In this document: in pieces, positions 27,920 through 53,963 of the stretch
Numbering within the stretch: position 1 is the stretch's first letter
Layout: every line of letters starts with the position of its first letter
Assembly: GCA_026391805.1 (NCBI GenBank)
Contig: JAPLDJ010000011.1
Coordinates: 2,219-66,218, forward strand
From: Bacteroidota bacterium
GTDB taxonomy: Bacteria; Bacteroidota; Bacteroidia; Bacteroidales; FEN-979
Direction: 5' to 3'
DNA length: 64,000 nt
Translations under genes and position numbers: made by a program
Notes under the pieces: model-generated
What the model was told of the DNA's origin: nothing
Seen by the model: only the letters and a program-made list of their open reading frames with translations
Databases searched by the model: none

Positions 27920-28126
27920 GAGGTCTGAGGACAGATGTCAGAGGTCGGAAGATGGAGGATGGAGGATAGAGAATGGATTCTGTGACTTAATCTGTGTAAT
28001 CCCTGCCTGCGGCGGGCAGGTGTGAAATCTGTGGTGAAAAAAGAATTACACGAAATTCCACGAAGAAGACACAAAGAACACGAAAAACAAGATAAAAAAC
28101 TCCTTTATGAACTTTACAAACTTTCT
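27920..28126 (+). repeat. Composite repeat mosaic upstream of folP (GAGGTCG-like 7-mers, type A with palindrome at 28002-28020, type B, AACTTTA)
   Basis: Shares long segments with the reverse complement of 32084-32217. Confidence 0.85.
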
Positions 28127-28129
28127 ACT

Positions 28130-28960
28130 TTGCCTTCATTCGAATTAAACTGTTCAGGTAAAATTCTTAGTCTGAGAAAGCCGGTAGTGATGGGGATCCT
28201 GAACATCACGCCAGACTCATTTTACGACGGGGGTGCATTCACCTTGCCTGTCGAACAATTGAAGCAGGTTGAGAAGATGATCGGTGAGGGTGCATCCATC
28301 ATTGATATCGGGGCCACATCCACCCGCCCGGGAGCTGATCTGCTGAGTGAGAAAGAAGAGTTGGGTCGTCTCATCCCCTGCCTGACAGCTGTAAAAAGTC
28401 ATTTTGCCGAAGTCATTATTTCTGTTGACACATTCCGTTCACCTGTTGCAAAAGCAGCCATCGACCATGGGGCATCCATGATCAACGATATCTGCGGCGG
28501 ACGGTTCGACGGGGAAATGTTTGAACTGGTCGCCGGAAAAAACATCCCCTACATCATGATGCACATGCAGGGCATGCCCGACACGATGCAGATGAACCCT
28601 CATTATACAGATCTTATCGGAGAGATCCATGAATTCTTCCGTACCAGGCTTGCATTAATGCCGCAAGGATTCAGCCAGGTGATCCTCGATCCGGGATTCG
28701 GTTTCGGCAAGACCGTGGAGGACAATTTCCGGCTTCTGAACCATTTCGAATCCTTCTATGAATTTGGTTATCCCTTGCTTGCCGGACTTTCCCGGAAATC
28801 GATGATCAACCGGGTGCTGAAGATAAAACCTTCGGAAGCCCTGAACGGGACCAACGTTCTGAATACGGTCGCTCTGCTTAAGGGGGCGAACATCCTCAGG
28901 GTGCATGATGTTAAGGAAGCAGTGGAAGCGATAAATCTAATACATGCAATGAGAGAATGA
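28130..28960 (+). CDS. folP: Dihydropteroate synthase
   Basis: MGILNITPDSFYDGG, ISVDTF, LDPGFGFGK, GLSRKS, RVHDV; TTG start at 28130 assumed because the longer N-terminus is repeat-derived. Confidence 0.95.
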   Translation: MPSFELNCSGKILSLRKPVVMGILNITPDSFYDGGAFTLPVEQLKQVEKMIGEGASIIDIGATSTRPGADLLSEKEELGRLIPCLTAVKSHFAEVIISVDTFRSPVAKAAIDHGASMINDICGGRFDGEMFELVAGKNIPYIMMHMQGMPDTMQMNPHYTDLIGEIHEFFRTRLALMPQGFSQVILDPGFGFGKTVEDNFRLLNHFESFYEFGYPLLAGLSRKSMINRVLKIKPSEALNGTNVLNTVALLKGANILRVHDVKEAVEAINLIHAMRE

Positions 28961-28967
28961 TTCTGGA

Positions 28968-29060
28968 ATTTTCTGTGTTTAATCCGTGTAAATCTGTGTA
29001 AATCTGCGGTGAATTTATTATTACACGAAAATCCACGAAGAAGACACGAAAATCCACGAA
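28968..29060 (+). repeat. Left arm of the 93-bp inverted repeat bracketing cdaA
   Basis: First 83 bp are identical to the reverse complement of the right arm; 2 mismatches in 93 bp. Confidence 0.93.
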
Positions 29061-29145
29061 AACTTTAACAGCAACAGCTGAAAAGCAAATAGCGATAGTA
29101 TCGTTTCTTTTGGTTAATTTTGCCTCGTTCTCATAACTACACCTT

Positions 29146-29937
29146 TTGCCTCTACTCGCCATCACCGGACTTTTCGACCTGCGGATCACCGATATCATTG
29201 ATGTGATCCTTTTTTCGGTTCTGCTTTATATGATCTACAACCTGGTAAAAGGCACAGCCGCCATCCGGATCTTTATCGGCATCATTGCCGTTTACTTGAT
29301 CTGGAAGATCGTAAAAGCCTTCCAGATGCAACTCCTGAGCGAGATCCTCGGGCAGTTTATCAGCGTCGGGTTCATTGCGCTGATCGTGGTATTTCAGCCT
29401 GAGATCCGGCAATTCCTATTACTGGTTGGAAATACGAGGATCATCAAGAACACGCGAAAACGTTTCCTTTTCTGGAAAATCCAGGTAGACGACCCGATGC
29501 ACCATCACATCGATACGATCGTGAAGGCCTGCCAGAAGATGGCAGATACCCGTACCGGCGCCCTGATCGTGATCACCGGGCAGAATGAACTGAGAAGTTA
29601 TATTGAAACCGGGCAGGTGGTTGATGGGAAGATCTCAGAGTTTCTTATCGAAACGATCTTCTTCAAGAACAGTCCGCTGCACGACGGGGCTGTGATCATT
29701 CACGGCGGGATCATCCGTGCAGCCCGCTGCATCCTTCCGGTCAGCAGCAACCCGGAGATCCCTGCAAATTACGGACTCCGTCACCGCGCGGCCGTCGGGA
29801 TCACGGAGAAATCAGATTCCCTCGCGATCATCGTTTCCGAAGAACGCGGGAAAATCTCTTATTGTTATGAAGGGAAACTGTCGAAAGAGGTGACGCCATC
29901 CGAGCTTTCAAATGCGATGGAGAAGTTTTTTAAATAG
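29146..29937 (+). CDS. cdaA: Diadenylate cyclase CdaA/DacA
   Basis: Three TM helices, VFQPEIR, SPLHDGA, GLRHRAA, VSEERG. Confidence 0.95.
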   Translation: MPLLAITGLFDLRITDIIDVILFSVLLYMIYNLVKGTAAIRIFIGIIAVYLIWKIVKAFQMQLLSEILGQFISVGFIALIVVFQPEIRQFLLLVGNTRIIKNTRKRFLFWKIQVDDPMHHHIDTIVKACQKMADTRTGALIVITGQNELRSYIETGQVVDGKISEFLIETIFFKNSPLHDGAVIIHGGIIRAARCILPVSSNPEIPANYGLRHRAAVGITEKSDSLAIIVSEERGKISYCYEGKLSKEVTPSELSNAMEKFFK

Positions 29938-29976
29938 CTGATGAGCTAATGAGCTGACGAATTAGCAAAATTTCCC

Positions 29977-30069
29977 TTCGTGGTTCTTCGTGTCTTCTTC
30001 GTGGATTTTCGTGTAATAATAAATTCACCGCAGATTTACACAGATTTACACGGATTAAACACAGAAAAT
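29977..30069 (-). repeat. Right arm of the 93-bp inverted repeat bracketing cdaA
   Basis: Reverse complement of 28968-29060. Confidence 0.93.
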
Positions 30070-31446
30070 GAGGTTGTCTATTTTTTAGTTGAAATTTGAA
30101 TGGCTAAGGTTCGTCGATTCATTTCTTTTTTAATCGCTTCCTGGAATTCATCTAGTCTTCCAAAGTTATTTATTTTTATCATTTTACGTTCAATTTCAAG
30201 TAAGGCTGATGCAATCCAGCGGTACCGTTCATTTGAGACGTTCCAATTTTTTACTTTGCCAACATATTTTTTTAGTTGTGAGTTCAAATTCTCAATGCAG
30301 TTTGTTGTCGAAAAACTTCGTCCGAATTCGACATTCAACCCGATTTTATGTAACGTGAGAATATCTTCCAATGCCTCATCCAAGGATCTTGCAGCGCTCA
30401 AATTAAGGGATTTAAGATCGGTTTTTAATTGGACAAGTTCAGCTTTTGCATCTTCATATTTTTCCCGATTAATCGCATGTTGATATTGACGTTTAACGAT
30501 TTCATGGTGTTTTTCCGGAAGATATTTCAAGATATTCTCCTGCTTATGCCACGTACATCGCTGTATGATAGCCTTTTCACCAAAAGAGTCCTCAACAGCT
30601 TTTCGTATTCCTTTACTGCCATCAATAACACAAAGCAGTCCATCAGAATAATCAAGTCCTCGCTCCTTCAATCCTTCAAACATATCCTTGATCGGTTCAG
30701 AGTTCTCCGTTGCAGCCTGGATGAAACACAATGGAATTTTATCTCCCTGAAGGGTCACTCCCAGACAAATAATTATTTGTTCTTTCGAAAGATATTTTCC
30801 ATCAATGAAGAGAGCGATGATTTTGTGATGAGCAATTGGCCGTGTTTCAAATTCATGAAGTTTTTCTTCAGTTCGTTCTATGAAAGATCGGGATACTGAA
30901 CTTTTCGACAAACCAAATCCTTCTCCCAAATGATCTATAACACCTCCGTAATCACGCATACTCAGACCCAAGAGAACACCTTTGATCAGCTGATCTGTGG
31001 GTTCGGGGAGATCTTTCATTTCTTCATACCGCTGAAGCGGAGTGTTATTTTCATCAACATTATCAAATAGCCGTGGAACGTCAATTTTCAACTTTTGGTC
31101 ACCAATCTTTACGCTACCTGGATTATAGCCCCATCGACTATAACGGCCATTATCCGGCTTTTGACGACAATACCGGGGTCCGGCTCTTTCTATTACTTCT
31201 TCTTCAAGTAACTCGTTTATCATTATCTGGCAAATACTCAGATGGTTTTGTAACAAACCGATCTTTAAGTCAACCGACTGTTCTTTCAGCCAGGTCAAGT
31301 TCTTTCGATTTAATTCATTACTTTTATTCTTTGGTTCCATATTATATTGTTTTTCGCAATTCAATATTACGGAACCTTAGCGAAGGACCAGCTATGTCTG
31401 GTTCTTCCTTTTTAAACTATATTTCAACTAAGTTTGGGACAAGATC
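30070..31446 (-). mobile_element. IS256-family insertion sequence (1377 bp)
   Basis: Imperfect TIRs GAGGTTGTCTATTTTTTAGTTGAAAT / GATCTTGTCCCAAACTTAGTTGAAAT; 8-bp TSD CAGAAAAT at 30062-30069 and 31447-31454; AT-richer than the flanks. Confidence 0.92.
30078..31340 (-). CDS. IS256/Mutator-family transposase
   Basis: GLSMRD, FIDG, IDGSKGI, QRCTWHK..N, TTNCIENLN (DDE plus CxxH). Confidence 0.93.
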   Translation of the reverse strand: MEPKNKSNELNRKNLTWLKEQSVDLKIGLLQNHLSICQIMINELLEEEVIERAGPRYCRQKPDNGRYSRWGYNPGSVKIGDQKLKIDVPRLFDNVDENNTPLQRYEEMKDLPEPTDQLIKGVLLGLSMRDYGGVIDHLGEGFGLSKSSVSRSFIERTEEKLHEFETRPIAHHKIIALFIDGKYLSKEQIIICLGVTLQGDKIPLCFIQAATENSEPIKDMFEGLKERGLDYSDGLLCVIDGSKGIRKAVEDSFGEKAIIQRCTWHKQENILKYLPEKHHEIVKRQYQHAINREKYEDAKAELVQLKTDLKSLNLSAARSLDEALEDILTLHKIGLNVEFGRSFSTTNCIENLNSQLKKYVGKVKNWNVSNERYRWIASALLEIERKMIKINNFGRLDEFQEAIKKEMNRRTLAIQISTKK

Positions 31447-31486
31447 CAGAAAATTCCCGGATTCGCATATTTTACCCAACCTCAGT

Positions 31487-32068
31487 CTACTTCTTCTTCG
31501 TCTTCTTTACAAGTTTGAGACCAGCCAGTGAATCTGCCACCCGGATGCTGTCCGCTTTCTGTTTTGCTTCAAATTCACGGACCATCTGTTCGGGGGATTT
31601 CCCGAGGTTCTCCATTGCGACACGTGCATCGTTGGCAAAATCGCTGTTCGGGTATTTCTCGACGAACTGGAGGTACAACTCTTTTGCCTTGTCGAGGTTC
31701 TTCAGCTGGTTTTCATAAATGTAGGCCTTGAAGAACATAGAGACGGATGCTTTCGGGTTGTCGGGATATTTTTCCATGAACTTGTCGAAAAGTTCAATGG
31801 CTTTGGCTGAATTATTCAAGTTCATCGCCAGGTTTGCAGCCTTGAAAGAAAATTTCAGGGACAGTGAATCATCCGGGAATCGTTTAACAAACAATTCATA
31901 AGCTGCCAGCAGGCTGTCGGCCTTTGCCTGATCAAAACCTGTGCTCATAGGCGAAAAGAGCCGTTTTTCCAGACCATCAATATTACTGGCTGATTTTTCC
32001 CTCGAGGGACCACAGCCGGAAAGAATGGCAACAAGTAGAACAAGCGTGAGGTAAGTTAATTTTTTCAT
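31487..32068 (-). CDS. TPR-containing lipoprotein
   Basis: Lipobox LSGC; repeated F...(F/Y)P..S helical TPR-like units. Confidence 0.85.
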   Translation of the reverse strand: MKKLTYLTLVLLVAILSGCGPSREKSASNIDGLEKRLFSPMSTGFDQAKADSLLAAYELFVKRFPDDSLSLKFSFKAANLAMNLNNSAKAIELFDKFMEKYPDNPKASVSMFFKAYIYENQLKNLDKAKELYLQFVEKYPNSDFANDARVAMENLGKSPEQMVREFEAKQKADSIRVADSLAGLKLVKKTKKK

Positions 32069-32083
32069 ATAGATTCTGTTTTT

Positions 32084-32217
32084 ATTTACGGTTTACGATT
32101 TAATTTTCGCTATTTCGCTTTTCGCTATTTGTTTTTTCACCACAGATTTCACACCTGCCCGCCGCAGGCAGGGATTACACAGATTTCTCTATCCTCCGTC
32201 TTCCGACCTCAGACCTC
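32084..32217 (-). repeat. Composite repeat mosaic starting at the def stop, with palindrome at 32154-32172
   Basis: Sense strand: gaggtctgaggtcggaagacggagg...aatctgtgtaatc[cctgcctgcggcgggcagg]tgtgaaatctgtggtgaaaaaa...aatagcgaaaagcgaaatagcg. Confidence 0.85.
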
Positions 32218-32790
32218 TTATTTTTTTCCCTTCTTCTGCAACGGAAACGTCATCCTGTAAAACACATCGATGTTCCCCTTTGAGATATCGGTGAGTTTGC
32301 CCTTCAGCAACATCTTACGGAGTGCGCTCATTTTATCGACAAACAGTTTCCCCTGCGTATGATCGTATTCGTGCTGGATCACACGGGCAACAATGCCTTC
32401 GAACCGTTCATCATGCGAATGAAAATGCTCATCCTGGTACTTCATATAGATGAACGGTTTCCGCATGATATCCTCACGCACGCCCGGGAAACTCAGGCAA
32501 CCTTCATTAAAGGCCCACTCCTCTCCCTCCTCTTTATAGATGGAGGGATTGATAAAAACCTTTTTAAAACCCTGGGCTTCCGGGTATTTATCGGCGTAAG
32601 GCGATACATCCATGATGAAAAGGCGGATGGACTGGTTGACCTGGGGGGCGGCAAGTCCGACCCCGTCAGACTGGTACATGGTTTCAAACATATCCGCGAT
32701 GAACTGTTCCAGGTCGGGATGGTCCGGCTGAACCTCTTTAGCAACCTTTCTCAGTGTTGGGTGACCATATGCTACAACAGGTAAAATCAT
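32218..32790 (-). CDS. def: Peptide deformylase
   Basis: GVGLAAPQ, EGCLS, QHEYDH. Confidence 0.97.
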   Translation of the reverse strand: MILPVVAYGHPTLRKVAKEVQPDHPDLEQFIADMFETMYQSDGVGLAAPQVNQSIRLFIMDVSPYADKYPEAQGFKKVFINPSIYKEEGEEWAFNEGCLSFPGVREDIMRKPFIYMKYQDEHFHSHDERFEGIVARVIQHEYDHTQGKLFVDKMSALRKMLLKGKLTDISKGNIDVFYRMTFPLQKKGKK

Positions 32791-32811
32791 AGGAACAATC
32801 TAAAATAAATG

Positions 32812-33258
32812 TTAACTGACTTCCGGACGATGGAAACCGGGTCCGATCGTCCTCTTCTCCATAAACGACTGCAGTATGATCACGGCGCTGACGGTATCAA
32901 CCAGCGATTTGTCCTGCCGGGCTTTCTTTTTCGCACCGGATTCCCGGATGGCCCTTGTAGCCATCAGGGAGGTGAACCGTTCATCGATCCGCTCGATGGG
33001 AATGGCCGGAAATTCTTCCCTCAGCCTCCGTACAAAGGGTTCGATAAATTTAGCTGATTCCGAATCCCTGTTGTTCATCTGCCTGGCTTCTCCCACAACA
33101 AAGCATTCCACGGCATTCTTTGAAGCATATTCTTTCAGGAATGCAATGGTGTCACCTGCCGGCACCGTAGTCAATGCCGTAGCAATGATCTGGAGTTCAT
33201 CCGTCACTGCAAGCCCGGCTCGCTTTTGTCCGTAATCGATCGCGATTATCCTGCCCAT
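32812..33258 (-). CDS. ruvX: RuvX/YqgF resolvase-like pre-16S rRNA nuclease
   Basis: AIDYGQKRAG.A, DERFTS, VDTVSAVIILQ. Confidence 0.93.
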   Translation of the reverse strand: MGRIIAIDYGQKRAGLAVTDELQIIATALTTVPAGDTIAFLKEYASKNAVECFVVGEARQMNNRDSESAKFIEPFVRRLREEFPAIPIERIDERFTSLMATRAIRESGAKKKARQDKSLVDTVSAVIILQSFMEKRTIGPGFHRPEVS

Positions 33259-33355
33259 CGTTAAAAAACCGGTGCAAAGTTAAGCATGATTCGGGTACGG
33301 GCGGTGAAGGGATGTTATTAATTCCTTACTTTTGATCTTTCATTAAAGGAAGAAA

Positions 33356-34174
33356 ATGGATCCGGACATCCGAAAAATAATTGAAAATGCCTGGGATAAC
33401 CGGGAATTGCTCAAAGAAGCCGAAGTTCAGAACGCCATCCGGGATGTGATCGGGATGCTGGATAAAGGGGAACTCCGCGTTGCAGAACCCTCCGGGCAGG
33501 AATGGAACGTAAATGAATGGATCAAGAAAGCGGTGATCCTCTATTTCCCGATCCAGAAGATGGAAACCACCGCGGTTGGCCCGTTTGAATTTCATGACAA
33601 GATCCCGCTGAAGAAAGGGTATGAAGCCCTCGGCATCCGGGTTGTACCGCATGCCATCGCACGGTACGGTTCATATATTGGGAAAGGCGTCATTCTGATG
33701 CCCTCGTATGTAAACATCGGCGCATACGTCGGCAGCGGAACCATGGTGGATACCTGGGCCACTGTCGGATCCTGTGCACAGGTCGGGAAGAATGTTCACC
33801 TCAGCGGCGGCGTAGGCTTGGGTGGTGTGCTAGAACCGGTGCAGGCAGCCCCGGTGATCATCGAGGATGATTGCTTTCTCGGGTCACGCTGCATCGTCGT
33901 TGAAGGTGTCAGGATCGGAAAAGAGGCAGTCCTTGGTGCCAACGTTACGCTGACCGGTTCAACAAAGATCATCGATGTTTCAGGATCTTCTCCTGTTGAA
34001 CTGCAGGGATATATTCCGCAGCGTTCTGTTGTGATCCCGGGAACCGTGGAAAAGCAGTTCCCGGCAGGCAGGTTCAATGTTACCTGCGCCCTGATCATCG
34101 GCCAGCGTAAGGCGTCCACCGACCTGAAGACTTCACTGAACCAGGCACTGAGAGAGTTTAACGTGAGTGTTTAG
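33356..34174 (+). CDS. dapD: Tetrahydrodipicolinate N-succinyltransferase
   Basis: WIKKAVILYF, MVDTWATVGSCAQVG, GGVLEP. Confidence 0.96.
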   Translation: MDPDIRKIIENAWDNRELLKEAEVQNAIRDVIGMLDKGELRVAEPSGQEWNVNEWIKKAVILYFPIQKMETTAVGPFEFHDKIPLKKGYEALGIRVVPHAIARYGSYIGKGVILMPSYVNIGAYVGSGTMVDTWATVGSCAQVGKNVHLSGGVGLGGVLEPVQAAPVIIEDDCFLGSRCIVVEGVRIGKEAVLGANVTLTGSTKIIDVSGSSPVELQGYIPQRSVVIPGTVEKQFPAGRFNVTCALIIGQRKASTDLKTSLNQALREFNVSV

Positions 34175-35165
34175 AGCGACATTGAAAAAAATCCTTGTCA
34201 TACAAACTGCTTCCATCGGGGATGTGATCCTCACTACACCGGTGATCGAGGCATTGCATCATTCCTTCCCGGACGCATCCATCGATATCCTTGTCAAGAG
34301 CGGAATGGAAGGCCTTTTCCGCAGTCATCCTTTTCTTCATGAAATTCTTGTCTGGAATAAGAAAAACAAAAAACTGCAGAATTTTCTCCGTATCCTCTGC
34401 AAGACAAGGAAAACAAAGTACGACGCCGTTATCAATGTGCAGCGCTTTGCCCTGACCGGGATTCTGACCTCACTTTCAGGATCAAAGGTCCGGATCGGCT
34501 TCTCAAAGAACCCGTTCTCGATCTTCTTCACACAATCCATTCTTCATATTATAAAAAAAGGGATGCATGAGACCGAACGGAACCTGATGCTGACCGAACC
34601 GCTGACCGGGCCGTCAAAGGAAAAACCGCGTCTTTACCCCATAGCCACCGACACTGCAAAAACGGCGGGTTACAAATCAGGAATTTATTATACGATCTCA
34701 CCTGCATCGCTCTGGTTTACCAAGCAATATCCGGCTGAAAAATGGATTGAATTCATCAGTTACATCCCTCATTCCTGTAAGGTATATTTCCTTGGTTCAT
34801 CTGAAGATGCAACACTTTGTGAGAACATCATCCGTCAGTCGGGACATCCGGGTTGTATCAGCCTGGCGGGAAAGCTCGGGTTCCTGGAATCCGCCTCCCT
34901 CATGAAAGATGCCAGGATGAATTTCACCAATGACTCCGCTCCCATGCACCTTGCATCTGCGGTGAATGCACCGGTTACCGTGATCTATTGCTCGACGGTC
35001 CCGGAATTCGGATTCGGCCCGCTGTCGGATGAATCCAGGATCGTTGAGATAAAAGATCCTCTCTCCTGCCGCCCCTGCGGTTTGCATGGATACAGATCCT
35101 GCCCTGAAAAACACTTCCGGTGTGCCACAGATATCGACGTGGATCAACTTGCTTCAGGACTCTGA
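34167..35165 (+). CDS. Glycosyltransferase family 9 (heptosyltransferase-like)
   Basis: IGDVILTTP, NDSAPMHLA, CRPCGLHG. Confidence 0.92.
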   Translation: MFRATLKKILVIQTASIGDVILTTPVIEALHHSFPDASIDILVKSGMEGLFRSHPFLHEILVWNKKNKKLQNFLRILCKTRKTKYDAVINVQRFALTGILTSLSGSKVRIGFSKNPFSIFFTQSILHIIKKGMHETERNLMLTEPLTGPSKEKPRLYPIATDTAKTAGYKSGIYYTISPASLWFTKQYPAEKWIEFISYIPHSCKVYFLGSSEDATLCENIIRQSGHPGCISLAGKLGFLESASLMKDARMNFTNDSAPMHLASAVNAPVTVIYCSTVPEFGFGPLSDESRIVEIKDPLSCRPCGLHGYRSCPEKHFRCATDIDVDQLASGL

Positions 35166-35274
35166 AAGCTGAATTTGAATTCTCATACAATTTAATAGGA
35201 TTTTTAGCGTAATTTTGCTGCACTGAAAGGAAAAAACGAACATCCTTTCATCCCTAACAATTCTTGTTCCTGTT

Positions 35275-35838
35275 ATGGAAAATGAAGTAAAAAATTGCCT
35301 GAAGGTACTTAAGAGCGGAGGGATCATCCTTTACCCGACTGATACGATCTGGGGAATCGGATGTGATGCGACGAATCCGAAGGCAATTGAAAAGGTGTAC
35401 CGTCTTAAAAAACGGGCCGACATTAAAAGCCTGATCATCCTCCTGGCCAGTGCCAGAGATCTGGAGACCTATGTTGCAAAGGTCCCGGCGATTGCAAATG
35501 ATCTCATGAAAAACGTTGAGAAACCGCTGACCATCATTTACCCGAATGCGCAGAACCTTCCGAAAAATGTTATCGCGGAAGACAATTCCATTGCCATCCG
35601 GATCGTCAGGAATGAGTTCTGCATCAGGCTGATCAAGGCTTTCGGCAAACCGATCGTATCCACATCTGCAAACATTTCAGGGGATATAGCCCCCATGGTC
35701 TTCAAATGTGTTTCGAAGGAGATTATCGATGGGGCCGACTACGTTGTAAACCTTTACCAGGATGACATCCAGGATGTGAAACCCTCAAGGATCATCAAAC
35801 TGTTCGCGAACGGAGAATTTAAAGTGATCAGGGCATGA
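35275..35838 (+). CDS. tsaC: L-threonylcarbamoyladenylate synthase (TsaC/YrdC)
   Basis: YPTDTIWGIGCD, LKKR, STSANISG. Confidence 0.93.
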   Translation: MENEVKNCLKVLKSGGIILYPTDTIWGIGCDATNPKAIEKVYRLKKRADIKSLIILLASARDLETYVAKVPAIANDLMKNVEKPLTIIYPNAQNLPKNVIAEDNSIAIRIVRNEFCIRLIKAFGKPIVSTSANISGDIAPMVFKCVSKEIIDGADYVVNLYQDDIQDVKPSRIIKLFANGEFKVIRA

Positions 35839-37910: not shown

Positions 37911-37933
37911 TTTAATCATTTTAACTCGCTCGA

Positions 37934-41299: not shown

Positions 41300-42758
41300 A
41301 AAGAGAACCATCTTAGGCCTGTTTATACTGATTTCTTTTGAGGGTTTTTCACAATCGAAAGAGATGATTGAGAAGATCAAAGGCTCGTGGGCAGGACCTC
41401 TGAAAGTCGGGGCGGCAGAACTTACTGTTGTGATCAACATCACGGCGAATGAAAAAGACAGCCTGATCGTCACCATCGACAGTCCCGACCAGAGTGTTAA
41501 CGGCATTGCCACTTCGAAGGTCCGTGTCACCGGAGATTCGCTGATCGTCAAATCAAAAGTCCTGAAGGCGACTTACAAGGGTGCGTTCGGAAGTGATTTC
41601 ACGGAGTTAAAAGGCACCTGGACACAGTCTTTTACCGAATTTCCCCTGAATCTTCATCATTCCTTTGAGAAATACAGCGTCAAACGGCCGCAGGAGCCTA
41701 AACCTCCTTATCCGTACATTGAAAAAGAGGTTGTCATTAAAAACGAAAAAGCGGGTGTTGACCTCGCCGGGACCCTGACCCTGCCGGAACAGGGCGGACC
41801 TTTTCCTGCAGTGATCCTGATCACCGGATCGGGGACTCAGAACCGGGATGAGGAGATGATGGGGCATAAGCCATTTCTCCTTCTGGCAGATTATCTTACA
41901 CGAAGAGGGATCGCCGTGCTGCGTTGTGATGACCGTGGTTTTGGTAAATCAACCGGGACGATGAATGCCGGGACGACCCTTGATTTTGTCTCCGATGTTG
42001 TTGCTGAATTTAATTTCCTGAAGATGCAGAAGGAGATCGATACCACGCGGATTGGTCTTGCCGGTCACAGTGAAGGCGGGCTGATTGCTCCTATCGTGGC
42101 CTCAAAGCAAAAGGATGTGGCTTTTATCATACTTCTTGCAGGGCCGGGCGTTACGGGCGAACAGATCCTTCTGCTGCAAACGGCGCTGTTAAACCGAAAA
42201 GCCGGGTTGAGCGAAAAAGACATTGAATTCGAGGCCAAACTGAGAACAAAGATCTATACTGCGATCAGGAAGAACAACGATAATGAAAAAGCCGCCAAAC
42301 AGATCAAACTGATCCTGAAGTCTGCCAAAAAGAAAAACCCAGATGGGAATGGCCTCGTTAAGATCACGGATCAGCAAGCCGACCTTTTTATCCAGCAATG
42401 CACCACGCCATGGTTCAGGATGTTCCTTGTCCTGGATCCGGTCGATTACCTTTCACAAACGAAATGTCCCGTTCTGGCGCTGAATGGTTCGCTGGATCTC
42501 CAGGTCCCGGCAAAGGAGAACCTCAAGGCCATTGAGAAAGCGCTGATATACGGCGGAAATTCACAATACACCATCGAAGAGATTCCGGGGCTCAACCATC
42601 TCTTCCAGCATGCCACAACCGGAAACATAGATGAATACGGGAAGATTGAAGAAACAATGTCGCCGGAGGTGCTGGAGAAGGTTGCCGACTGGATCAGCAA
42701 AATAGCGAAAAGCGAAATAGTGAAAAGCTCTGTGAGCCTCTGTGTCTTCTCTGTGTAA
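41274..42758 (+). CDS. Secreted alpha/beta hydrolase (serine peptidase/esterase-like)
   Basis: RPQEP, GSG.QNRDE, GHSEGG nucleophile, NGSLDLQV, NHLFQ; start at 41274 or 41283. Confidence 0.9.
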   Translation: MNFMNFINLKRTILGLFILISFEGFSQSKEMIEKIKGSWAGPLKVGAAELTVVINITANEKDSLIVTIDSPDQSVNGIATSKVRVTGDSLIVKSKVLKATYKGAFGSDFTELKGTWTQSFTEFPLNLHHSFEKYSVKRPQEPKPPYPYIEKEVVIKNEKAGVDLAGTLTLPEQGGPFPAVILITGSGTQNRDEEMMGHKPFLLLADYLTRRGIAVLRCDDRGFGKSTGTMNAGTTLDFVSDVVAEFNFLKMQKEIDTTRIGLAGHSEGGLIAPIVASKQKDVAFIILLAGPGVTGEQILLLQTALLNRKAGLSEKDIEFEAKLRTKIYTAIRKNNDNEKAAKQIKLILKSAKKKNPDGNGLVKITDQQADLFIQQCTTPWFRMFLVLDPVDYLSQTKCPVLALNGSLDLQVPAKENLKAIEKALIYGGNSQYTIEEIPGLNHLFQHATTGNIDEYGKIEETMSPEVLEKVADWISKIAKSEIVKSSVSLCVFSV

Positions 42759-42783
42759 CTCTGTGTAATAATTTTTATAGAAA

Positions 42784-42815
42784 AAAAGAGGCCAACATTT
42801 CTGAAGGCCTCTTTT
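42784..42815. terminator. Probable bidirectional terminator
   Basis: AAAAGAGGCC...GGCCTCTTTT between convergent genes. Confidence 0.65.
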
Positions 42816-42835
42816 GCTTTTAAATAAGTTTCCGG

Positions 42836-44950: not shown

Positions 44951-45095
44951 GGTGAAGGATTTTGATTTCAGTTTAGATTCATGACAAAAGTACAATTATT
45001 CATCAACCGTCGGACTGATGGAATTCCAATTTTTACTAACTTTGATTACTTTTAAAAGCGAACAGTGAATACTGAACAAATAACAACTAACAGCT

Positions 45096-46445
45096 ATGGC
45101 GAGTTCTTTGGATGCAATCTCCCCCATTGACGGACGCTACCGGAAAGTGACGGAGCCGCTGGCGGCTTTTTTTTCCGAATCCGCGGTCATCCGTTACCGT
45201 ATCCTTGTGGAAGTGGAATATTTCATCTCCCTTTGTTCGATTCCTCTTCCGCAACTGAAAGGATTCAATAAGAAGTTCTTCCCGGAACTGAGGTCGCTTT
45301 ACAAGCAATTCCAGCCGGAATATGCTGTCAGGGTAAAGGAAATCGAAAAGATTACAAACCATGATGTGAAAGCCATTGAATACATCCTGCGGGAGAAATT
45401 CGATGAGTTCGGGATCGGTCAGTACAAGGAATTCATTCATTTCGGGCTGACATCGCAGGACATCAACAACACGGCGTTTCCGCTTGCGCTGAAAGAGGCT
45501 TTCCTTGATGTTTACAAGCCGATGCTGGACGAGATCCTCGCAGTGCTGAAGCAGAAAAGCAAAGAATGGAAAAAGGTTCCGATGCTGGCGCGTACGCACG
45601 GGCAGCCGGCATCGCCCACCACGATCGGGAAAGAACTGTATGTTTTTGCAGAGCGGCTGGAAAAGCAGATGAACCTGCTGGAGACGATCCCTTCTTCGGC
45701 AAAATTCGGCGGGGCCACCGGAAATTTCAATGCCCACCATGTGGCGTATCCTTCCATCGACTGGATCGGGTTTGCGGACAAGTTTGTGCAGGAATCGCTG
45801 GGACTTGAGCGGTCGACCACTACCACCCAGATCGAGCATTACGACAATCTGGCCGCCCTGTTCGATAACCTGAAACGGATCAACACCATCCTGATCGATT
45901 TTTCAAGGGATATCTGGACCTACATCTCGATGGATTATTTCCGGCAGAAGGTAAAAAAGAGTGAAGTCGGCTCATCAGCCATGCCACACAAGGTGAACCC
46001 GATCGATTTTGAGAATGCGGAGGGAAACCTCGGGATGGCCAATGCCATCTTTGAACACCTGTCGGCCAAGCTGCCGGTATCGCGCCTGCAGCGCGACCTT
46101 ACCGATTCCACCGTGATCCGGAATACAGGAGTGCCACTGGCCCATTCGGTGATCGCCTTCCGTTCGCTGCTCAAGGGCATCGACAAGCTGATCCTTCATG
46201 AAGAAAAGATGGAAAAGGACCTTGACGAGAACTGGGCCGTGGTTTCAGAAGCCATCCAGACCATCCTCAGGCGGGAGAATTACCCTGACCCCTTCGAAGC
46301 ACTGAAAGGGCTGACCCGTGGAAAATCGAAAATCGATAAAAAGATGCTGCATAAATTCATCGACGGACTCGACGTTCCCGTCAAAATAAAAAATGAATTA
46401 AAGAAGATCACACCGGCCAACTATACCGGGATCATCCCGTTCTGA
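45096..46445 (+). CDS. purB: Adenylosuccinate lyase
   Basis: SPIDGRY, TNHDVKA, RTHGQ, GSSAMPHKVNPIDFEN. Confidence 0.97.
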   Translation: MASSLDAISPIDGRYRKVTEPLAAFFSESAVIRYRILVEVEYFISLCSIPLPQLKGFNKKFFPELRSLYKQFQPEYAVRVKEIEKITNHDVKAIEYILREKFDEFGIGQYKEFIHFGLTSQDINNTAFPLALKEAFLDVYKPMLDEILAVLKQKSKEWKKVPMLARTHGQPASPTTIGKELYVFAERLEKQMNLLETIPSSAKFGGATGNFNAHHVAYPSIDWIGFADKFVQESLGLERSTTTTQIEHYDNLAALFDNLKRINTILIDFSRDIWTYISMDYFRQKVKKSEVGSSAMPHKVNPIDFENAEGNLGMANAIFEHLSAKLPVSRLQRDLTDSTVIRNTGVPLAHSVIAFRSLLKGIDKLILHEEKMEKDLDENWAVVSEAIQTILRRENYPDPFEALKGLTRGKSKIDKKMLHKFIDGLDVPVKIKNELKKITPANYTGIIPF

Positions 46446-46470
46446 TTCAGAAGTATCTTTACATATTTGA

Positions 46471-46560
46471 TAAGCGATAAGCGATAAGCGATAGGCGATA
46501 GGCGATAGGCGATAGGCGATAAGCGAAAAGCGAAAAGCGAAAAGCGAAAAGTGAAAAGTC
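46471..46560 (+). repeat. 12-unit heptamer array
   Basis: (TAAGCGA)3(TAGGCGA)4(TAAGCGA)(AAAGCGA)3(AAAGTGA). Confidence 0.95.
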
Positions 46561-46587
46561 AAAAAAATTAATACAGGCATAGGAAGG

Positions 46588-47460
46588 ATGAAAGTCAGTG
46601 GCTTCACCATTGTCAGAAATGCCATTAAATACGATTACCCGGTGGTGGAGTCGATCTGCTCGATCCTTCCCCTGTGCGACGAAATGGTTGTTGCCGTTGG
46701 AAATTCTGATGACGGCACACGGGTGCTGGTGGAATCGATTGGTTCTGACAAGATCCGGATCCTCGATACCGTGTGGGACGAATCGCTGCGGAAAGGAGGC
46801 GAGGTCCTTGCCGTCGAAACAAACAAGGCCTTTGATGCCATTTCCCCCGAAAGCACATGGGCCGTTTACATCCAGGCCGACGAGGTTTTGCATGAAGCAT
46901 CTTATGAAATTTTGCGAAAGGCAATGGAAACCCGTAAAGATCATCCTGAAGTAGAAGGCTTTGTTTTTGATTACCGGCACTTCTTCGGTTCGTATGATTT
47001 CATCGCCGATTCACGCGACTGGTACCGGCGGGAAGTCCGGATCATCAGGAACAACAAGGCAATCCGCTCCTATAAAGATGCACAGGGATTCCGCAGGGAA
47101 GGGAAGAAACTTAATGTGAAAACCACCTGCGCCGTGATGTGCCATTACGGATGGGTCAAGCCTCCTGAATCGATTCGGTCGAAACTGGAATACTTCCATA
47201 CACTCTGGCACGATAAAGAATGGATGGAGAAGAACAGGGAGCAGGCGGGTTCGTTTGATTATTCCCAGATCGATTCACTTTCAAGGTTCAATGGAACTCA
47301 TCCCGAAACCATGAAGAAAAGAATAGCGGAAAAGAACTGGGAATTCACCTTCGACCCGACAAAGAAAAAGTTCCCGCCAGTCGCAAGAATGTTGCATGCG
47401 ATTGAGAAGGTGACAGGCTGGAGGGTTGGGGAGTACAAGAATTATAAAATAGCGAAGTAG
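46588..47460 (+). CDS. Glycosyltransferase family 2
   Basis: SGFTIVRNA, GNSDDGT, YIQADE, HYGWV. Confidence 0.88.
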   Translation: MKVSGFTIVRNAIKYDYPVVESICSILPLCDEMVVAVGNSDDGTRVLVESIGSDKIRILDTVWDESLRKGGEVLAVETNKAFDAISPESTWAVYIQADEVLHEASYEILRKAMETRKDHPEVEGFVFDYRHFFGSYDFIADSRDWYRREVRIIRNNKAIRSYKDAQGFRREGKKLNVKTTCAVMCHYGWVKPPESIRSKLEYFHTLWHDKEWMEKNREQAGSFDYSQIDSLSRFNGTHPETMKKRIAEKNWEFTFDPTKKKFPPVARMLHAIEKVTGWRVGEYKNYKIAK

Positions 47461-47645
47461 CGAAATAGCGAAAAGTCATATGTCATATGTCATATGTCAT
47501 AAGGTCTCAAAGTTTGTCTGTGACTAATCCCTGCCTGCGGCAGGCAGGTGTGAAAATCTGTGGAATCTGTGGTGAAAAACAAATAGCTAAATCGTGAAAT
47601 TGAGAAATAGCGAAAGAAAGAACTTTACAAACTTTATAAACTAAA
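47446..47645 (+). repeat. Composite mosaic: 8-mer, GTCATAT 7-mer, type A with palindrome (47530-47548), 8-mer, AACTTTA
   Basis: Aligns with 41130-41299. Confidence 0.88.
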
Positions 47646-47705
47646 CCCCTTATTTCATAAACATTTTAGGGATAATCTTCTTAAATTTGTAAAAAATATC
47701 ACTCT

Positions 47706-48266
47706 ATGGATCTAAGTAAGATTTTATCGATCTCGGGTAAGCACGGATTGTTTAAGGTTGTTTCGCAGCTGAAGAATGCAGTCCTTGTTGAATCAATCAT
47801 TGACCAGAAAAGGTTTCCGGCATTCGCACATGAGAAGATCAGCTCGCTGGAAGAGATCGCTGTGTTTACTGCAACGGAAGACAAGCCGCTGAAGGATATC
47901 CTGAAGGCCATGTACGAGAAGCAGGAAGGGAAACCTGGCCCCGATGTAAAATCAGACAATAAGGTACTGCAGGCATTTTTCCAGGAAGTGGTTCCGGATT
48001 ATGACACGGAAAGGGTTTACGTTTCCGACATCCGGAAGATCATTGGCTGGTATAATCTCCTGGCAGAAAATAATCTGCTCGATTTTACCGAAAAAGAGGA
48101 GGGAAAAGCGGAAGAAAAAGCACCGGAACCGGCCGAAACTGCAGAAGAACCTGTGAAGGAGAGTCCAAAGAAAAGGAAAGCTGCAGAAGTAAAGGAAGAA
48201 ACGAGTGAACCGGAGAAGAAGAAAGCGCCTGCTGCAAAGAAAAAATCTAAACCGGATCAGTCATAA
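47706..48266 (+). CDS. DUF5606-like conserved protein
   Basis: ILSISGK.GLFK, ISSLEEIA, PDYD.ERVYVSDI.K...WYNLL; low-complexity tail. Confidence 0.85.
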   Translation: MDLSKILSISGKHGLFKVVSQLKNAVLVESIIDQKRFPAFAHEKISSLEEIAVFTATEDKPLKDILKAMYEKQEGKPGPDVKSDNKVLQAFFQEVVPDYDTERVYVSDIRKIIGWYNLLAENNLLDFTEKEEGKAEEKAPEPAETAEEPVKESPKKRKAAEVKEETSEPEKKKAPAAKKKSKPDQS

Positions 48267-49089: not shown

Positions 49090-49177
49090 CAAGTACGAAG
49101 TACAAAGTAAGAATGAAGGACAAAGTATAAAGTACATATTATGATTGCGTATGACATATGACGTATGACGTCTGACA
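49090..49177 (+). repeat. Two heptamer families between pyrK and pyrD (AAGTAC-like, then TATGACR)
   Basis: aagtacgaagtacaaagt...aaagtataaagtac; gtatgacatatgacgtatgacgtctgac. Confidence 0.8.
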
Positions 49178-49187
49178 AATTATAGAA

Positions 49188-50125: not shown

Positions 50126-50205
50126 TTTAACCACAATAGACACAATAGAACACATTAGTATTTCACATATTCTATTGTGCCCTAATGTGCCTAATGTGGT
50201 GAAAA
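50126..50205. repeat. Inverted pair of 9/10-bp CACAWTAG arrays (long imperfect hairpin)
   Basis: ccacaatagacacaatagaacacattag ... ctattgtgccctaatgtgcctaatgtgg. Confidence 0.85.
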
Positions 50206-51060: not shown

Positions 51061-51065
51061 CAAAT

Positions 51066-51190
51066 GACAGGTTACAGGTTACGAGTATCACGCAAAGACC
51101 GCAAAGATGAAACGCAAAGTTCGCAAAGGGATTGATTTCTGGTAGTTACTCTCTGCGTTCTTTTCGAAATTCTTTGCGTTCTTTGCGAGA
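51066..51190. repeat. GTTACAG 7-mers, then an inverted pair of CGCAAAG arrays
   Basis: cgcaaag x4 ... ctctgcg/ctttgcg. Confidence 0.8.
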
Positions 51191-51248
51191 AACGCACTTT
51201 TAAGACAAGTCCCGATGAAATGGCACTACTGATAAACCATATTCCCGT

Positions 51249-51409
51249 GATCCCCATCGGGGATCCATTATTGTAAAAATAACGTTGACCAATATCATCA
51301 CATCCCTGGAGGGGATGCATAATCCTGCTATTCCATTATGGATTTCCTACGGAAATTTGATTGTGGCTTTTCTCCGTTCTACTACAAAAATGGATTTCCT
51401 GCGGAAATC
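51249..51409. repeat. Four short REP-like hairpins arranged as two pairs
   Basis: gatccccatcggggatc, catccctggaggggatg, atttcctacggaaat, gatttcctgcggaaatc. Confidence 0.7.
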
Positions 51410-51529
51410 TTTACCTCACAATAGTAATGGCCTTCAACCAAAAAATAATTAAAAATTCTGTTTCGTGAACCGTGTTCCGAAATCGCTTTTACAACGTAGT
51501 GTAGCAATCAAAGAAGATCGGTCAGCAAA

Positions 51530-53680
51530 CTACTTCCCGTCAGTAACTTTAATAAATTTCCCGTACCGGCCGTTAAGACCGTTTGAATCAGTTAATCTTA
51601 CAAGGTAGATGCCCGGGGTCAGGCCCGAAACATCGATTTCCTTTTTATCACTTTGTTCAATCAATACCTTCCCTTCCGGAGAGTACAACGTCACCATGAA
51701 ATATCCTTCACCGGTTTCAAGGAATATATGGTCAGAAGCCGGGTTGGGATAGATCGTAAAGTCACCCGCTATCGTTTTGTGACCGGTTCCTGCAATAACA
51801 TCCCGGAGCAGGAAGGCGGGATGAAGGTTCTGTGAAGTTGTGTTCCCGACCGAATCCATCAGCATCACCATCAGATCGATCAGGGCAGAATCAGAATAGC
51901 TGTTCATCACCGGTGTGAGATCCGCTTCATAAGGCATTCCGCAGGTTGAGTCCAGCTTTGCCGGGATGGAATTCACGGGAAGTGAGGTCCATGTTGTCTC
52001 GTCATAATTTTTATAGAAAAGCTGGACATCAGCCAAGGAATGGTAAATGCGCTGATACGATGGAGTATATTCCCAATCCGCAGCTGTAAAGCTGACTTTG
52101 GCCGGGTAACCGCGTACAATCTCTGGGGACACATTATCTCCCTGCTGCACCTTAAATGCCATCATGGTCGGAGAACAGGCATCCGTGGGGTTCGCCAGGT
52201 CGAACGTCAGAGTGGTCTGGAGGAAACCCTGCTTCCCGTAAAAGAGGTAGTTGCTGTCGTTCAGGATAACGCTGTAAATACCGGTGCCGGGAGTATAATA
52301 ATAGATCTCAAAACTGTTGCGCGCAGAGTCCTGGTAAATCATAATGTTTTCATCCCATATCTGATAGGTGCACAAGGGAACATCCACATACCGTCTTTCG
52401 TTGCTCTGCCCTCGAAAATGGGAATAAATATCGATAAATGGTTGTCCGGGCTTGTTGACCTGCCACGTGACGTTGAACGGGGCGGTGTTCCCAACCGTCA
52501 CCGCTTCACCGGGCGATATCCGGTAATCGGATTCCACCGGCGGATAGTTGCCCTGGGTGCTGAATATAAGATCATTGGTTTTATACAGATAGGTAATCGG
52601 GGTCATGATATCGGTCATGTGTGTTGTGGACATGGGATTCAGGCCGAGATGATCGATAAATGTTGCAAAAAAGGATTTGTTGGAATCGACGGGAGACTGG
52701 TTCAGGTATAGGATCACTGAATCGGTTTCCGAGCTGGGATAGTCATCCCATAGAAATGCCCCCACAAATGTGTCCACGGATCCGGTCAGGGAATCATTTG
52801 AAACAGGGCCATAGCCCCAGGCCAGGTAAAAGTCCTTCCCCGACGGCGCGGAATTCAGGATCTGCATCGAGTGCTTCATTTCCGAAGGATCGCTCGTCAG
52901 CGCAGTATCACTGGTTACTCCGCTCAGGACAGGATATGTGATAGAATATTGTTGATAAAGCTTCTTTTTCGTGACAAAGATCCTGTTCATCAGGATCTTC
53001 ATATTGGGTGGGATATCGGACACCATGATGGAGTCCGGCACAAACCCGGAGTAACAATAGGAAGAATACGGTACCTTGGAAGGCTCATCAAATTCCACAT
53101 TGACACCAAAACCATCTCCTGAATCCCCAGACTGCCCCTGCAGGGTATCGCCATACTCGTCAAGGGCAACGAGCCGGATCTGGTGATTTGCGGATGAAGA
53201 CAGGATGGTCGTATCCATATCCGTGTACACAAGAAAATGACCGTCGAAAATATAACGTTGGACAATAAATCCATCCATAGAGCAAAAAAGCTGATAGTAT
53301 CCGGCGGGCATGTCAGCCTCAAGCGTCGTGGAATTGACCCAATTCATGTTATAGTTGCTTAAGAACATAGTGTCAGCATTCACGCAAAGCAGATCATTAA
53401 AACCGTTTGCCTGATCAAAATGGAAAACGATATGGTTTGTCTGTAAGGGCTTTTTGCTCCCAGCAAGAAGTTTCGCTTCCCTTGCGTCACGATCATTTTG
53501 GAAGGGATTATAATACCTTGCCGGCTTGCCGGCATGCCGGGCGACGGAATGAGAATACTTTCCGTTGGCAAGCCGGTGAATGTCTGAAACCGTTTGAACA
53601 TTGGATAAATTGGTTTGGAACTGTGCGGCTGTGAGGCAGGAGATGGAGATAAGGCAAAGGATCAGGAAGGAGGTTTTCAT
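51530..53680 (-). CDS. T9SS type A CTD-containing hypothetical protein
   Basis: Signal peptide; IYPNPASD...IDVSGLTPGIYLV...KFIK. Confidence 0.85.
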   Translation of the reverse strand: MKTSFLILCLISISCLTAAQFQTNLSNVQTVSDIHRLANGKYSHSVARHAGKPARYYNPFQNDRDAREAKLLAGSKKPLQTNHIVFHFDQANGFNDLLCVNADTMFLSNYNMNWVNSTTLEADMPAGYYQLFCSMDGFIVQRYIFDGHFLVYTDMDTTILSSSANHQIRLVALDEYGDTLQGQSGDSGDGFGVNVEFDEPSKVPYSSYCYSGFVPDSIMVSDIPPNMKILMNRIFVTKKKLYQQYSITYPVLSGVTSDTALTSDPSEMKHSMQILNSAPSGKDFYLAWGYGPVSNDSLTGSVDTFVGAFLWDDYPSSETDSVILYLNQSPVDSNKSFFATFIDHLGLNPMSTTHMTDIMTPITYLYKTNDLIFSTQGNYPPVESDYRISPGEAVTVGNTAPFNVTWQVNKPGQPFIDIYSHFRGQSNERRYVDVPLCTYQIWDENIMIYQDSARNSFEIYYYTPGTGIYSVILNDSNYLFYGKQGFLQTTLTFDLANPTDACSPTMMAFKVQQGDNVSPEIVRGYPAKVSFTAADWEYTPSYQRIYHSLADVQLFYKNYDETTWTSLPVNSIPAKLDSTCGMPYEADLTPVMNSYSDSALIDLMVMLMDSVGNTTSQNLHPAFLLRDVIAGTGHKTIAGDFTIYPNPASDHIFLETGEGYFMVTLYSPEGKVLIEQSDKKEIDVSGLTPGIYLVRLTDSNGLNGRYGKFIKVTDGK

Positions 53681-53823
53681 GGGGCGGATTTATAAATTCA
53701 GATGAAGATTATCCGGGAATGAGCTGTTGGGACGAACGGAAAACCGCGCTAATGTAAAAAAAAACGTTTCCAAATTTACTTACCAACCAATTAATTCAAA
53801 AATAATAAAAATTGAATTACCCA

Positions 53824-53963
53824 GGACGGAGGTCGGAGGTCGGAAATCTGAAAAATCCGTGTAATCCCTGCCTGCGGCAGGCAGGTGTGTAATCTGTGGT
53901 AAAATTCAATCTTCATTTCCGCACAATTTCATGAGTACCTTCTTACGATTTTACGATCTTACC
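53824..53963 (+). repeat. Composite mosaic upstream of ORF6N (GGAGGTC 7-mers, type A with palindrome at 53867-53885, TTACGAT 8-mers)
   Basis: aatccgtgtaatc[cctgcctgcggcaggcagg]tgtgtaatctgtggt. Confidence 0.85.

Follow-up and report, generated by a model that had tools for sequence, protein, structure and literature searches.

Five intergenic mosaics with a common palindrome-bearing core

We analysed a 64,000-nt stretch of a freshwater Bacteroidota genome (G000:C3:2219-66218, hereafter the window; source genome 3.89 Mb, 28 contigs, 98% complete), in which five intergenic spacers carry mosaics of short tandem arrays arranged around one common core. At all five loci the core consisted of CTGTG-type 9-mers with an inserted 19-nt GC palindrome (CCTGCCTGCGGCAGGCAGG or a single G>A variant, with tgtgaaatctgtggtgaaaaa following) and ended in the terminus GTGGTGAAAAA, and in each case the palindrome lay precisely on the AATC^TGTG junction between units. 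Within the window the palindrome was found at five positions, giving 10 strand matches with ≤3 mismatches where 0.01 would be expected. Loci 3 (41130-41299) and 4 (47446-47645) showed the order AGCGA 8-mers, GTCATA 7-mers, gtctgtgactaatc-palindrome-tgtgaa..atctgtggtgaaaaa and AACTTTA 9-mers, with an extra AGCGA-like array at 47581-47615 of locus 4, while at loci 1 (27920-28126), 2 (32084-32217, minus strand) and 5 (53823-53904) GAGGTC/GGAGGAT 7-mers preceded the same core. The core pointed in the direction of the downstream gene at all five loci, and at the three loci between tandem genes (2, 3 and 4) the upstream stop codon was abutted by the first array or contained in it. By Pfam, the neighbours are five different and unrelated gene pairs: DUF1599/folP (locus 1), def/TPR (locus 2), DUF4249/alpha-beta hydrolase (locus 3), an unknown gene/DUF5606-DUF6852 (locus 4), and a gene for a protein with a type IX secretion system tail/ORF6N (locus 5). 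The module order and the unrelated neighbours had been described in an earlier sequence-only reading of this stretch, and the order was recovered here nearly to the base.

The CTGTG unit has the consensus AATCTGTG(T), and the core reads AATC-palindrome-TGTG, so that removal of the palindrome recreates a unit. Sequence was conserved over ~15-20 nt upstream and 22 nt downstream of the palindrome, with TGGTGA at +11/12 in 30 of 49 copies. The CTGTG module as a whole is ~60 nt long with a defined 3′ end; its terminal signature occurred in 197 copies (46 with the palindrome, 151 without), and 174 modules were intergenic. Arrays of other families lay within 130 nt upstream of 124 of these 174 and within 60 nt downstream of 84. 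About a quarter of the modules carried the palindrome, and paralogous modules with and without it differed at the identical position. The palindrome (19/20 nt) had 106 copies in the genome, set in no fewer than five array contexts that recur (AATC^TGTG, 49 copies; CGAAG^TACACACAAAG, 14; CACGAAG^RAGACACGAA, 8-9; and others), and in each of them joining the flanks recreated the local array unit. These copies were mostly single, apart from two direct doublets on contigs C3 and C12; inverted doublets occurred in some Thermodesulfobacteriota loci.

Folding of the five loci returned the GC hairpin with its 8-bp stem alone (z −0.25 to −2.5), and Rfam 15 gave no match at gathering score and none at E≤1 over 27700-54200. 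None of 22 terminator-like sites in 27800-47750 coincided with the four palindromes of that region, whose hairpins, followed by the tail TGTGAAATCTGTGG, lack the T-run of an intrinsic terminator. A scan for canonical sigma-70 promoters found nothing at the palindromes. As a separate observation, a recurrent hairpin element, ccccttctccttcaggagaaggggccgggggatgaggtgg, frequently stands just 5′ of CTGTG modules (for example at C1:103283, C2:41470 and C4:110572) and contains the GC palindrome in two places.

Array families occupy ordered places between stop and start codons

Tandem Repeats Finder reported 1,360 intergenic arrays of period 6-12 in the genome, 651 of them with period 7. Within strictly intergenic DNA (372.6 kb) we counted 1,293 short-unit arrays compared with 57, 40 and 63 in three shuffles, and 622 period-7 arrays compared with 6, 9 and 5; by a rough estimate from the intergenic array count, arrays make up about one tenth of the non-coding DNA. 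Data-driven clustering grouped the arrays into ~50 recurrent families with 7-10-nt units. In 386 of 1,721 spacers, a stretch of ≥60 nt recurred in another spacer with ≥85% identity, and multi-module blocks of 60-128 nt could be aligned between loci. Nearly all intergenic spacers are tiled by short-unit arrays, and the five loci are ordinary examples of this genome-wide pattern.

A profile built from the five cores detected 52 genome copies at ≥35 bits. As a side observation on their distribution, contig C3, at 2.8% of total genome length, had 8 of the 52 against ~1.5 expected, a local clustering. GAGGTC (10:1), GGAGGAT (9:1) and GTCATA-type arrays (6:0) lay upstream of the core and CACGAA (~9:1), CGTAAA (7:1) and AACTTTA arrays (3:0) downstream, with AGCGA on both sides (4:4); the strand of each family relative to the core was nearly invariant. 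Over all mosaics, GAGGTC preceded GGAGGAT in 18:0 cases, CTGTG preceded CACGAA in 19:0, GAGGTC preceded CTGTG in 16:0 and CTGTG preceded CGTAAA in 11:0. Altogether the majority pair order was followed in 231 of 259 cases, compared with a mean of 170.8 (standard deviation 5.0, maximum 190) in 1,000 within-mosaic shuffles. The module order is therefore strongly non-random genome-wide, and the claim of the sequence-only reading that slippage alone would be insufficient stands, because such a multi-family order is not what slippage alone produces.

The families also differed in their distance from the flanking codons, as measured on gene calls from a crude ORF-based caller (2,958 genes, 90% coding), which makes distances to gene starts approximate. 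AGCGA arrays began at a median of 2 nt past the stop codon (69% within 10 nt, n=58) and GAGGTC arrays at a median of 0 nt (70% within 10 nt, n=27). GGAGGAT and GTCATA followed ~30-40 nt past the stop, CTGTG lay mid-spacer, AACTTTA stood ~15 nt before the next start, and CGTAAA ended at a median of 5 nt before it (n=32). From stop to start, the rank order is AGCGA, GAGGTC, GGTGA and others, then GGAGGAT and GTCATA, then CTGTG, then CACGAA and CACAATAG, and finally CGTAAA and AACTTTA. The same order recurs at unrelated loci largely because every family keeps to its own position in the interval from stop to start.

The arrays also disrupt short-read assemblies: metagenome contigs (freshwater) mapped on 27800-47799 broke at arrays, where the pile-up reached depth bins of 418-575. 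Because array units contain stop codons, ORFs are extended or ended by arrays, and both the assembly breaks and the altered ORF ends mislead annotation.

Orientation follows transcription as a tendency

The sequence-only reading had stated that orientation at the five loci matches the strand of the downstream gene. This was confirmed; genome-wide the rule is a tendency and no law, with 35 of 52 cores and 123 of 174 CTGTG modules co-oriented with the downstream gene. In tandem gene contexts co-orientation reached 97:24 for CTGTG modules and 28:7 for cores, and several array families were co-oriented with tandem genes at ~3:1. Core strand bore no relation to GC skew (23:29). The bias thus tracks transcription and not replication, and replication-oriented insertion of the IS200/IS605 type was rejected on the same count. 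Avoidance of C-rich, Rho-loading sense RNA was likewise rejected, since the bias among arrays was weak (G>C in 427, C>G in 369).

The core is a lineage-specific burst with identical copies in distant phyla

We compared the five sites with orthologous spacers in relatives, aligning 12 of 16 and 15 of 16 relatives at two sites and 4-5 of five congeners at the others. The congeners are syntenic, at 72-78% gene identity. In most congeners the spacers at DUF4249/hydrolase and DUF5606 carried arrays of other families, and in some they carried almost none; the stop-adjacent AGCGA array was the sole shared one, in one species at the former and in three at the latter, and neither the core nor a small gene was present there in any relative examined. 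The folP-cdaA-TPR-def region showed the same turnover of families, with only stop- or start-adjacent arrays persisting at altered unit counts, as for the AACTTTA array before folP, which has 2 units here and 4, 12 and 5 in three congeners. Two side observations concern the same region: the folP-cdaA spacers of relatives L030 and L031 contain hairpins 3′ of folP in which N GCTGGAT units, a loop and N reverse GCTGGAT units follow one another, and in relative G004 inverted GGTATT arrays lie on both sides of folP.

The exact 27-28-nt core was seen 40 times here and once in congener G012, and 59 other relatives lacked it. A pattern for the module gave 56 exact matches here and none in 12 congeners; among 18 other relatives, two had 6 between them. 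Within the phylum, the palindrome was found patchily in 50 of 400 sampled genomes, of which this genome was the richest, and a reversed-pattern control gave 0. Thus, the CTGTG module, with ~174-197 copies here and none in 12 congeners, is a recent lineage-specific burst. In a species-representative collection, the exact core was found at 79 loci, one of them a duplicate from this genome, whose records bear about a dozen labels at phylum level, among them Bacillota, Thermodesulfobacteriota, Elusimicrobia, Omnitrophota, Patescibacteria, Planctomycetes, Nitrospirota, WOR-3, Stahlbacteria, Auribacterota, a gammaproteobacterium and Bacteroidota. These loci lay mostly between housekeeping genes, often amid GATTACACAGAT/ATCTGTGTAATC units. 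A burst in one lineage, combined with sequence identity across distant phyla, is the mark of DNA that copies itself and spreads horizontally. The suggestion that blocks had been copied or shuffled between loci is accordingly upheld for copying, by the alignable blocks and the module matches lacking in congeners, and not for shuffling, much of the order being codon-anchored placement.

The arrays share their vocabulary with small-gene cassettes

The genome encodes six TIGR02436 (four-helix-bundle) and five TIGR04256 (GxxExxY) genes, and 10 of these 11 lie between inverted arrays drawn from the same set of families (GAGGTC, GCTGGAT, AGCGA, CACGAA, CTGTG and others), in agreement with the link to both gene families that the sequence-only reading had suggested. 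One GxxExxY gene (G000:C21:403041-403391) has CTGTG arms with the module terminus GTGGTGAAGAA. It accounts for one of the two outward-facing, cassette-type pairs among the 174 CTGTG modules. In other genomes, a PDDEXK_3 gene lay within 250 nt of the core at 3 of 79 loci (150 of 265 ORF fragments scanned). Among 79 same-family inverted array pairs of this genome, 36 had their members within 50 nt of each other and form gene-less hairpins.

The five loci had no cassette-type inverted arms, all of their arrays being direct, and no PF05635 or PDDEXK_3 ORF was found there or at orthologous sites in relatives, where all aligned spacers measured ≤372 nt. A general role of inverted flanks as gene brackets was rejected as well: at a score of at least 25, 16 genes had inverted flanks and 17 direct flanks, and the inverted set includes the housekeeping genes cdaA and dtd. 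A reverse-transcriptase origin was rejected, as this 98%-complete genome gave no match to RVT_1. As an observation in its own right, cdaA (29146-29937), a syntenic housekeeping gene in five congeners, is flanked by two inverted composite arms of 93 nt, which share 97.8% identity with one another and ≤88% with other copies; beside them lies an IS256-like, Mutator-family transposase gene (30078-31364) without counterpart in the five congeners. A recent local copy, gene conversion or chance may lie behind this arrangement.

Comparison with known repeat systems

In heterocystous cyanobacteria, the short tandemly repeated repetitive sequences (STRR) that Mazel is said to have described in 1990 and, in Nostoc, the small dispersed repeats (SDR) attributed to Elhai in 2008 reportedly comprise many intergenic tandem-heptamer families with lineage-specific bursts, and the SDR description reportedly includes a ~20-27-nt hairpin element inserted within heptamer arrays. 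By that definition, spacer heptamer families with a small inserted hairpin are a feature also found here, in another phylum and with other sequences. We know of no description of a stop-to-start rank order or a 4:1 transcription orientation for STRR/SDR.

Repetitive extragenic palindromes (REP), the bacterial interspersed mosaic elements (BIME) built from them, REP doublets forming hairpins (REPIN) and their REP-associated tyrosine transposases (RAYT) resemble the present elements in several respects: a GC-rich palindrome that is short, extragenic and abundant (106 copies here), its embedding among other short motifs in ordered mosaics, a position between genes that are convergent or co-oriented, and a patchy distribution among relatives (PMC3116915). 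REPs conserve a GTAG or CGTC tetranucleotide at one end (PMC3733652). In contrast, the palindrome here has no such tag, being flanked by AATC and TGTG in 49 copies and by other array units otherwise; in this genome its copies are mostly single and not inverted doublets, no Y1/RAYT gene is flanked by palindrome or arrays, the companion motifs are tandem 7-10-mers, and the exact core is common to several phyla.

In Coxiella, the 23S rRNA intervening sequence (IVS) carries an S23p ORF within the loop of its terminal inverted repeats, and 2-3 strain-variable copies of the heptamer GACAGAT stand just 5′ of the ORF (PMC4990558). It is like the cassettes elsewhere in this genome in placing a small PF05635-type gene between inverted repeats, and GACAGAT resembles the reverse strand of the CTGTG-type units, whereas the five loci have neither ORF nor inverted arms and lie between protein genes instead of within rRNA.

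TAACTGA and other heptamer repeats have been described from Beggiatoaceae, Cyanobacteria and a few Bacteroidetes, with a patchy spread that suggests horizontal transfer (PMC4679880). They are intergenic, 'forward' relative to the downstream ORF and in some cases directly before start codons; spacers of Gramella and Aequorivita hold several distinct heptamer repeats that close relatives lack (PMC4679880). The intergenic placement, orientation, start proximity and patchy spread are as seen here. That study, however, follows one heptamer, proposes translational regulation and mentions no multi-family order, palindrome insert or link to small-gene cassettes (PMC4679880). Among long simple sequence repeats (Mrazek 2007, via PMC4679880), heptamers dominate, slippage alters copy number and units that are not multiples of three are limited to non-coding DNA. 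These three traits are shared with the arrays here, while the order, orientation, composite blocks and cross-phylum core are unexpected from slippage. With respect to miniature inverted-repeat transposable elements, the CTGTG module has the defined 3′ end without an inverted 5′ end, its array edges are fuzzy, and no target-site duplication was seen by eye in the copies inspected.

In the literature searched, neither this core nor a multi-family array grammar with a set order was described, although STRR/SDR details may bear on novelty; what the present analysis adds is the order rule, the inserted palindrome and the lineage-specific burst.

Copied repeat DNA as the proposed reading, and its alternatives

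On balance we lean slightly towards reading the mosaics as selfish, copied repeat DNA that resembles REP/BIME and STRR/SDR, is related to IVS-like cassettes and has its orientation filtered by transcription. Composite blocks would be copied from locus to locus, the CTGTG module representing a recent lineage-specific burst; only certain positions and a single orientation relative to transcription would be produced or tolerated; and later slippage would alter the unit numbers. GxxExxY nuclease-like or four-helix-bundle proteins may have a role in the process. The elements are probably mobile; no pair of empty and filled sites was caught. If they are, the modules would rank with the smallest mobile units known, and none of the transposition mechanisms described so far explains the rule that they follow in position and orientation.

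Several results weigh against copied selfish DNA. No insertion event was caught among the relatives compared, and because the closest of these are 72-78% identical, neither a clean empty site nor a target duplication can be defined. No enzyme among the candidates examined tracks the elements: a Y1/RAYT mobiliser was rejected, as the three Y1_Tnp genes have no palindrome or array flanks, and Y1 homologues were present in palindrome-free congeners with none found in the palindrome-rich genome G067; GxxExxY was rejected as a predictor of the core, the gene being present in 7 of 8 congeners searched, all of them core-free. Moreover, codon anchoring, the 4:1 orientation bias and the persistence of arrays in the same spacer across species are also expected from host function, and the AACTTTA array 5′ of folP is retained in four species.

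A bolder form of this explanation is possible, if doubtful: pan-bacterial, horizontally spreading micro-elements, in which the palindrome would insert where units of short tandem arrays meet, and single arms of nuclease-associated, IVS-like cassettes, here the ~60-nt CTGTG module, would colonise spacers in their hundreds, in one orientation relative to transcription, and stack from stop to start. If true, they would constitute undescribed mobile DNA with its own insertion rules and would bring heptamer repeats and rRNA intervening sequences together with two orphan gene families, GxxExxY and four-helix-bundle.

The main rival holds that the arrays are host-selected modules of untranslated regions (UTRs) acting at the RNA level, with insulators that bear stop codons near the stop, spacers for a leader or promoter near the start and a central GC hairpin protecting or punctuating transcripts as in E. 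coli REPs, so that order reflects function. We consider it unlikely, although it keeps real support from the anchoring of families at stop and start codons, from orientation with transcription rather than replication and from the persistence of arrays at the same spacers in most congeners, including that before folP. The mutual near-identity of the inverted cdaA arms also fits, as do the 341 arrays within 10 nt of a stop codon, whose units supply a stop on the gene strand in 170 cases and on the opposite strand in 71; this enrichment is partly circular, because the first stop defined the ORF ends. UTR function sits poorly, however, with the replacement of array families between congeners at orthologous spacers, with the array-free spacers of some congeners and with the absence of the central module from 12 congeners despite conserved housekeeping flanks, and an RNA-level role gains nothing from the lack of a fold beyond the 8-bp hairpin or of an Rfam match at E=1, from palindromes without a T-run terminator or from the weak G>C sense-strand bias. 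Were the modules functional after all, they would amount to a modular UTR code in a phylum with poorly understood translation and termination signals.

Still less probable, in our judgement, is that the mosaics are scars or landing pads of four-helix-bundle or GxxExxY cassettes, that is, their leftovers or insertion sites, as the sequence-only reading had proposed. The arms of the 10 bracketed small genes, the CTGTG arms of one GxxExxY gene, the occasional PDDEXK_3 neighbour of the core and the gene-less hairpins speak for such a relation. At the sites themselves it fails: no aligned relative had a small gene between the modules, the modules are direct at all five loci, outward-facing pairs are confined to two among 174, and genes with inverted flanks, housekeeping genes included, are no commoner than those with direct flanks. 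Neutral simple-sequence repeats, arising by independent polymerase slippage on favoured heptamers in each spacer, would account for the dominance of period 7, for the unit counts that differ between orthologous arrays and for the unit gradient inside the 46469-46551 array, but explain neither the shared multi-family order nor an exact core across about a dozen phyla nor a ~190-copy module missing in congeners, so that slippage is already contradicted as the sole explanation, is very improbable as such, and survives only as a source of changing unit numbers.

Other mosaics and elements in the window

Six further mosaics lie at 28972-29062, 29936-30065, 42704-42768, 46469-46551, 49091-49177 and 50132-50198 (Table 1 for all but 42704-42768). 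The drift of units along the 46469-46551 array shows slippage plus in-place mutation.

Table 1 Coordinates of arrays, modules and other elements in the window
Site	Feature	Position	Strand	Details
Locus 1	GAGGTC 7-mer array	27920-27946	+	3.9 units
Locus 1	GGAGGAT 7-mer array	27947-27977	+	4.4 units
Locus 1	CTGTG module	27978-28042	+	palindrome 28002-28020 at AATC^TGTG junction; terminus GTGGTGAAAAAA
Locus 1	CACGAA element	28045-28089	+	ttACACGAA..CCACGAAG..GACAC..
Locus 1	AACTTTA 9-mers	28105-28126	+	2 units, immediately 5′ of folP
cdaA, 5′ side	composite CTGTG + CACGAA module	28968-29062	+	no palindrome; inverted partner 29976-30069
cdaA, 3′ end	GATGAGCT-type array	29936-29955	+	begins at cdaA stop codon
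Between cdaA and IS256-like transposase gene	inverted composite CTGTG + CACGAA copy	29976-30069	−	
Locus 2	start-proximal CGTAAA 7-mers and AGCGA 8-mers	32084-32130	−	CGTAAA 32084-32102; AGCGA 32105-32130
Locus 2	CTGTG module	32132-32186	−	palindrome 32154-32172
Locus 2	GGAGGAT/GAGGTC units	32187-32217	−	begin right behind def TAA stop (32218-32220)
Locus 3	AGCGA 8-mers	41130-41157	+	first unit contains DUF4249-gene TAG stop (41133-41135)
Locus 3	GTCATA 7-mers	41158-41175	+	
Locus 3	CTGTG module	41192-41256	+	palindrome 41206-41224
Locus 3	AACTTTA 9-mers	41259-41299	+	4.6 units
7-mer array	12 units	46469-46551	+	unit drift GATAAGC > GATAGGC > GAAAAGC > GAAAAGT
Locus 4	AGCGA 8-mers	47447-47474	+	upstream ORF stops at second-unit TAG (47458-47460)
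Locus 4	GTCATAT 7-mers	47475-47502	+	3.9 units
Locus 4	CTGTG module	47516-47579	+	palindrome 47530-47548
Locus 4	AGCGA-like 8-mers, then AACTTTA 9-mers	47581-47615, 47621-47642	+	
pyrK/pyrD spacer	GTACGAAG-type units and TATGACA 7-mers	49091-49177	+	TATGACA is GTCATA reversed
Further mosaic	CACAATAG and CTAATGTGCC arrays	50132-50198	+	
Locus 5	GAGGTC 7-mers	53823-53844	+	3.1 units
Locus 5	CTGTG module	53853-53904	+	palindrome 53867-53885
ORF6N gene (54029-54568)	leader motif TATTACTTTTT-N11-GGATTAA	53987-54014	+	14 nt 5′ of the gene

Two larger repeats follow one another in the window: a ~120-nt hairpin at 51085-51207, whose arms are built of GCAAAG sub-repeats and which has several further copies, and a distinct ~200-nt repeat at 51209-51414 with several short hairpins and five other copies at 86-92% identity.

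The leader motif before the ORF6N gene is separate from the mosaics. Its general form, TATTACYTTT-N10-14-GATTAA, stands 8-30 nt ahead of start codons at 34-36 places genome-wide, and the 34 strict copies compare with ~0.02 expected by chance on our own estimate. The genes it precedes encode four-helix-bundle, GxxExxY, three Y1_Tnp, two ORF6N, GIY-YIG, RhuM, RadC and ComEC proteins, a ComM-like Mg-chelatase ATPase, a XerC-like integrase, an Exo_endo_phos_3 nuclease, an LTD/CHU_C protein and, at G000:C1:218205-218786, a protein with sigma-70 region 2. The leader was present in all 12 congeners (3-32 copies) and in two other genera of the family (41 and 16 copies), and was rare across other families of the order, with 0-1 matches for a reversed-pattern control. 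It looks like the promoter of a putative regulon under a family-specific alternative sigma factor, made up of genes for DNA uptake and processing, and the selfish small genes appear to ride on this putative regulon.

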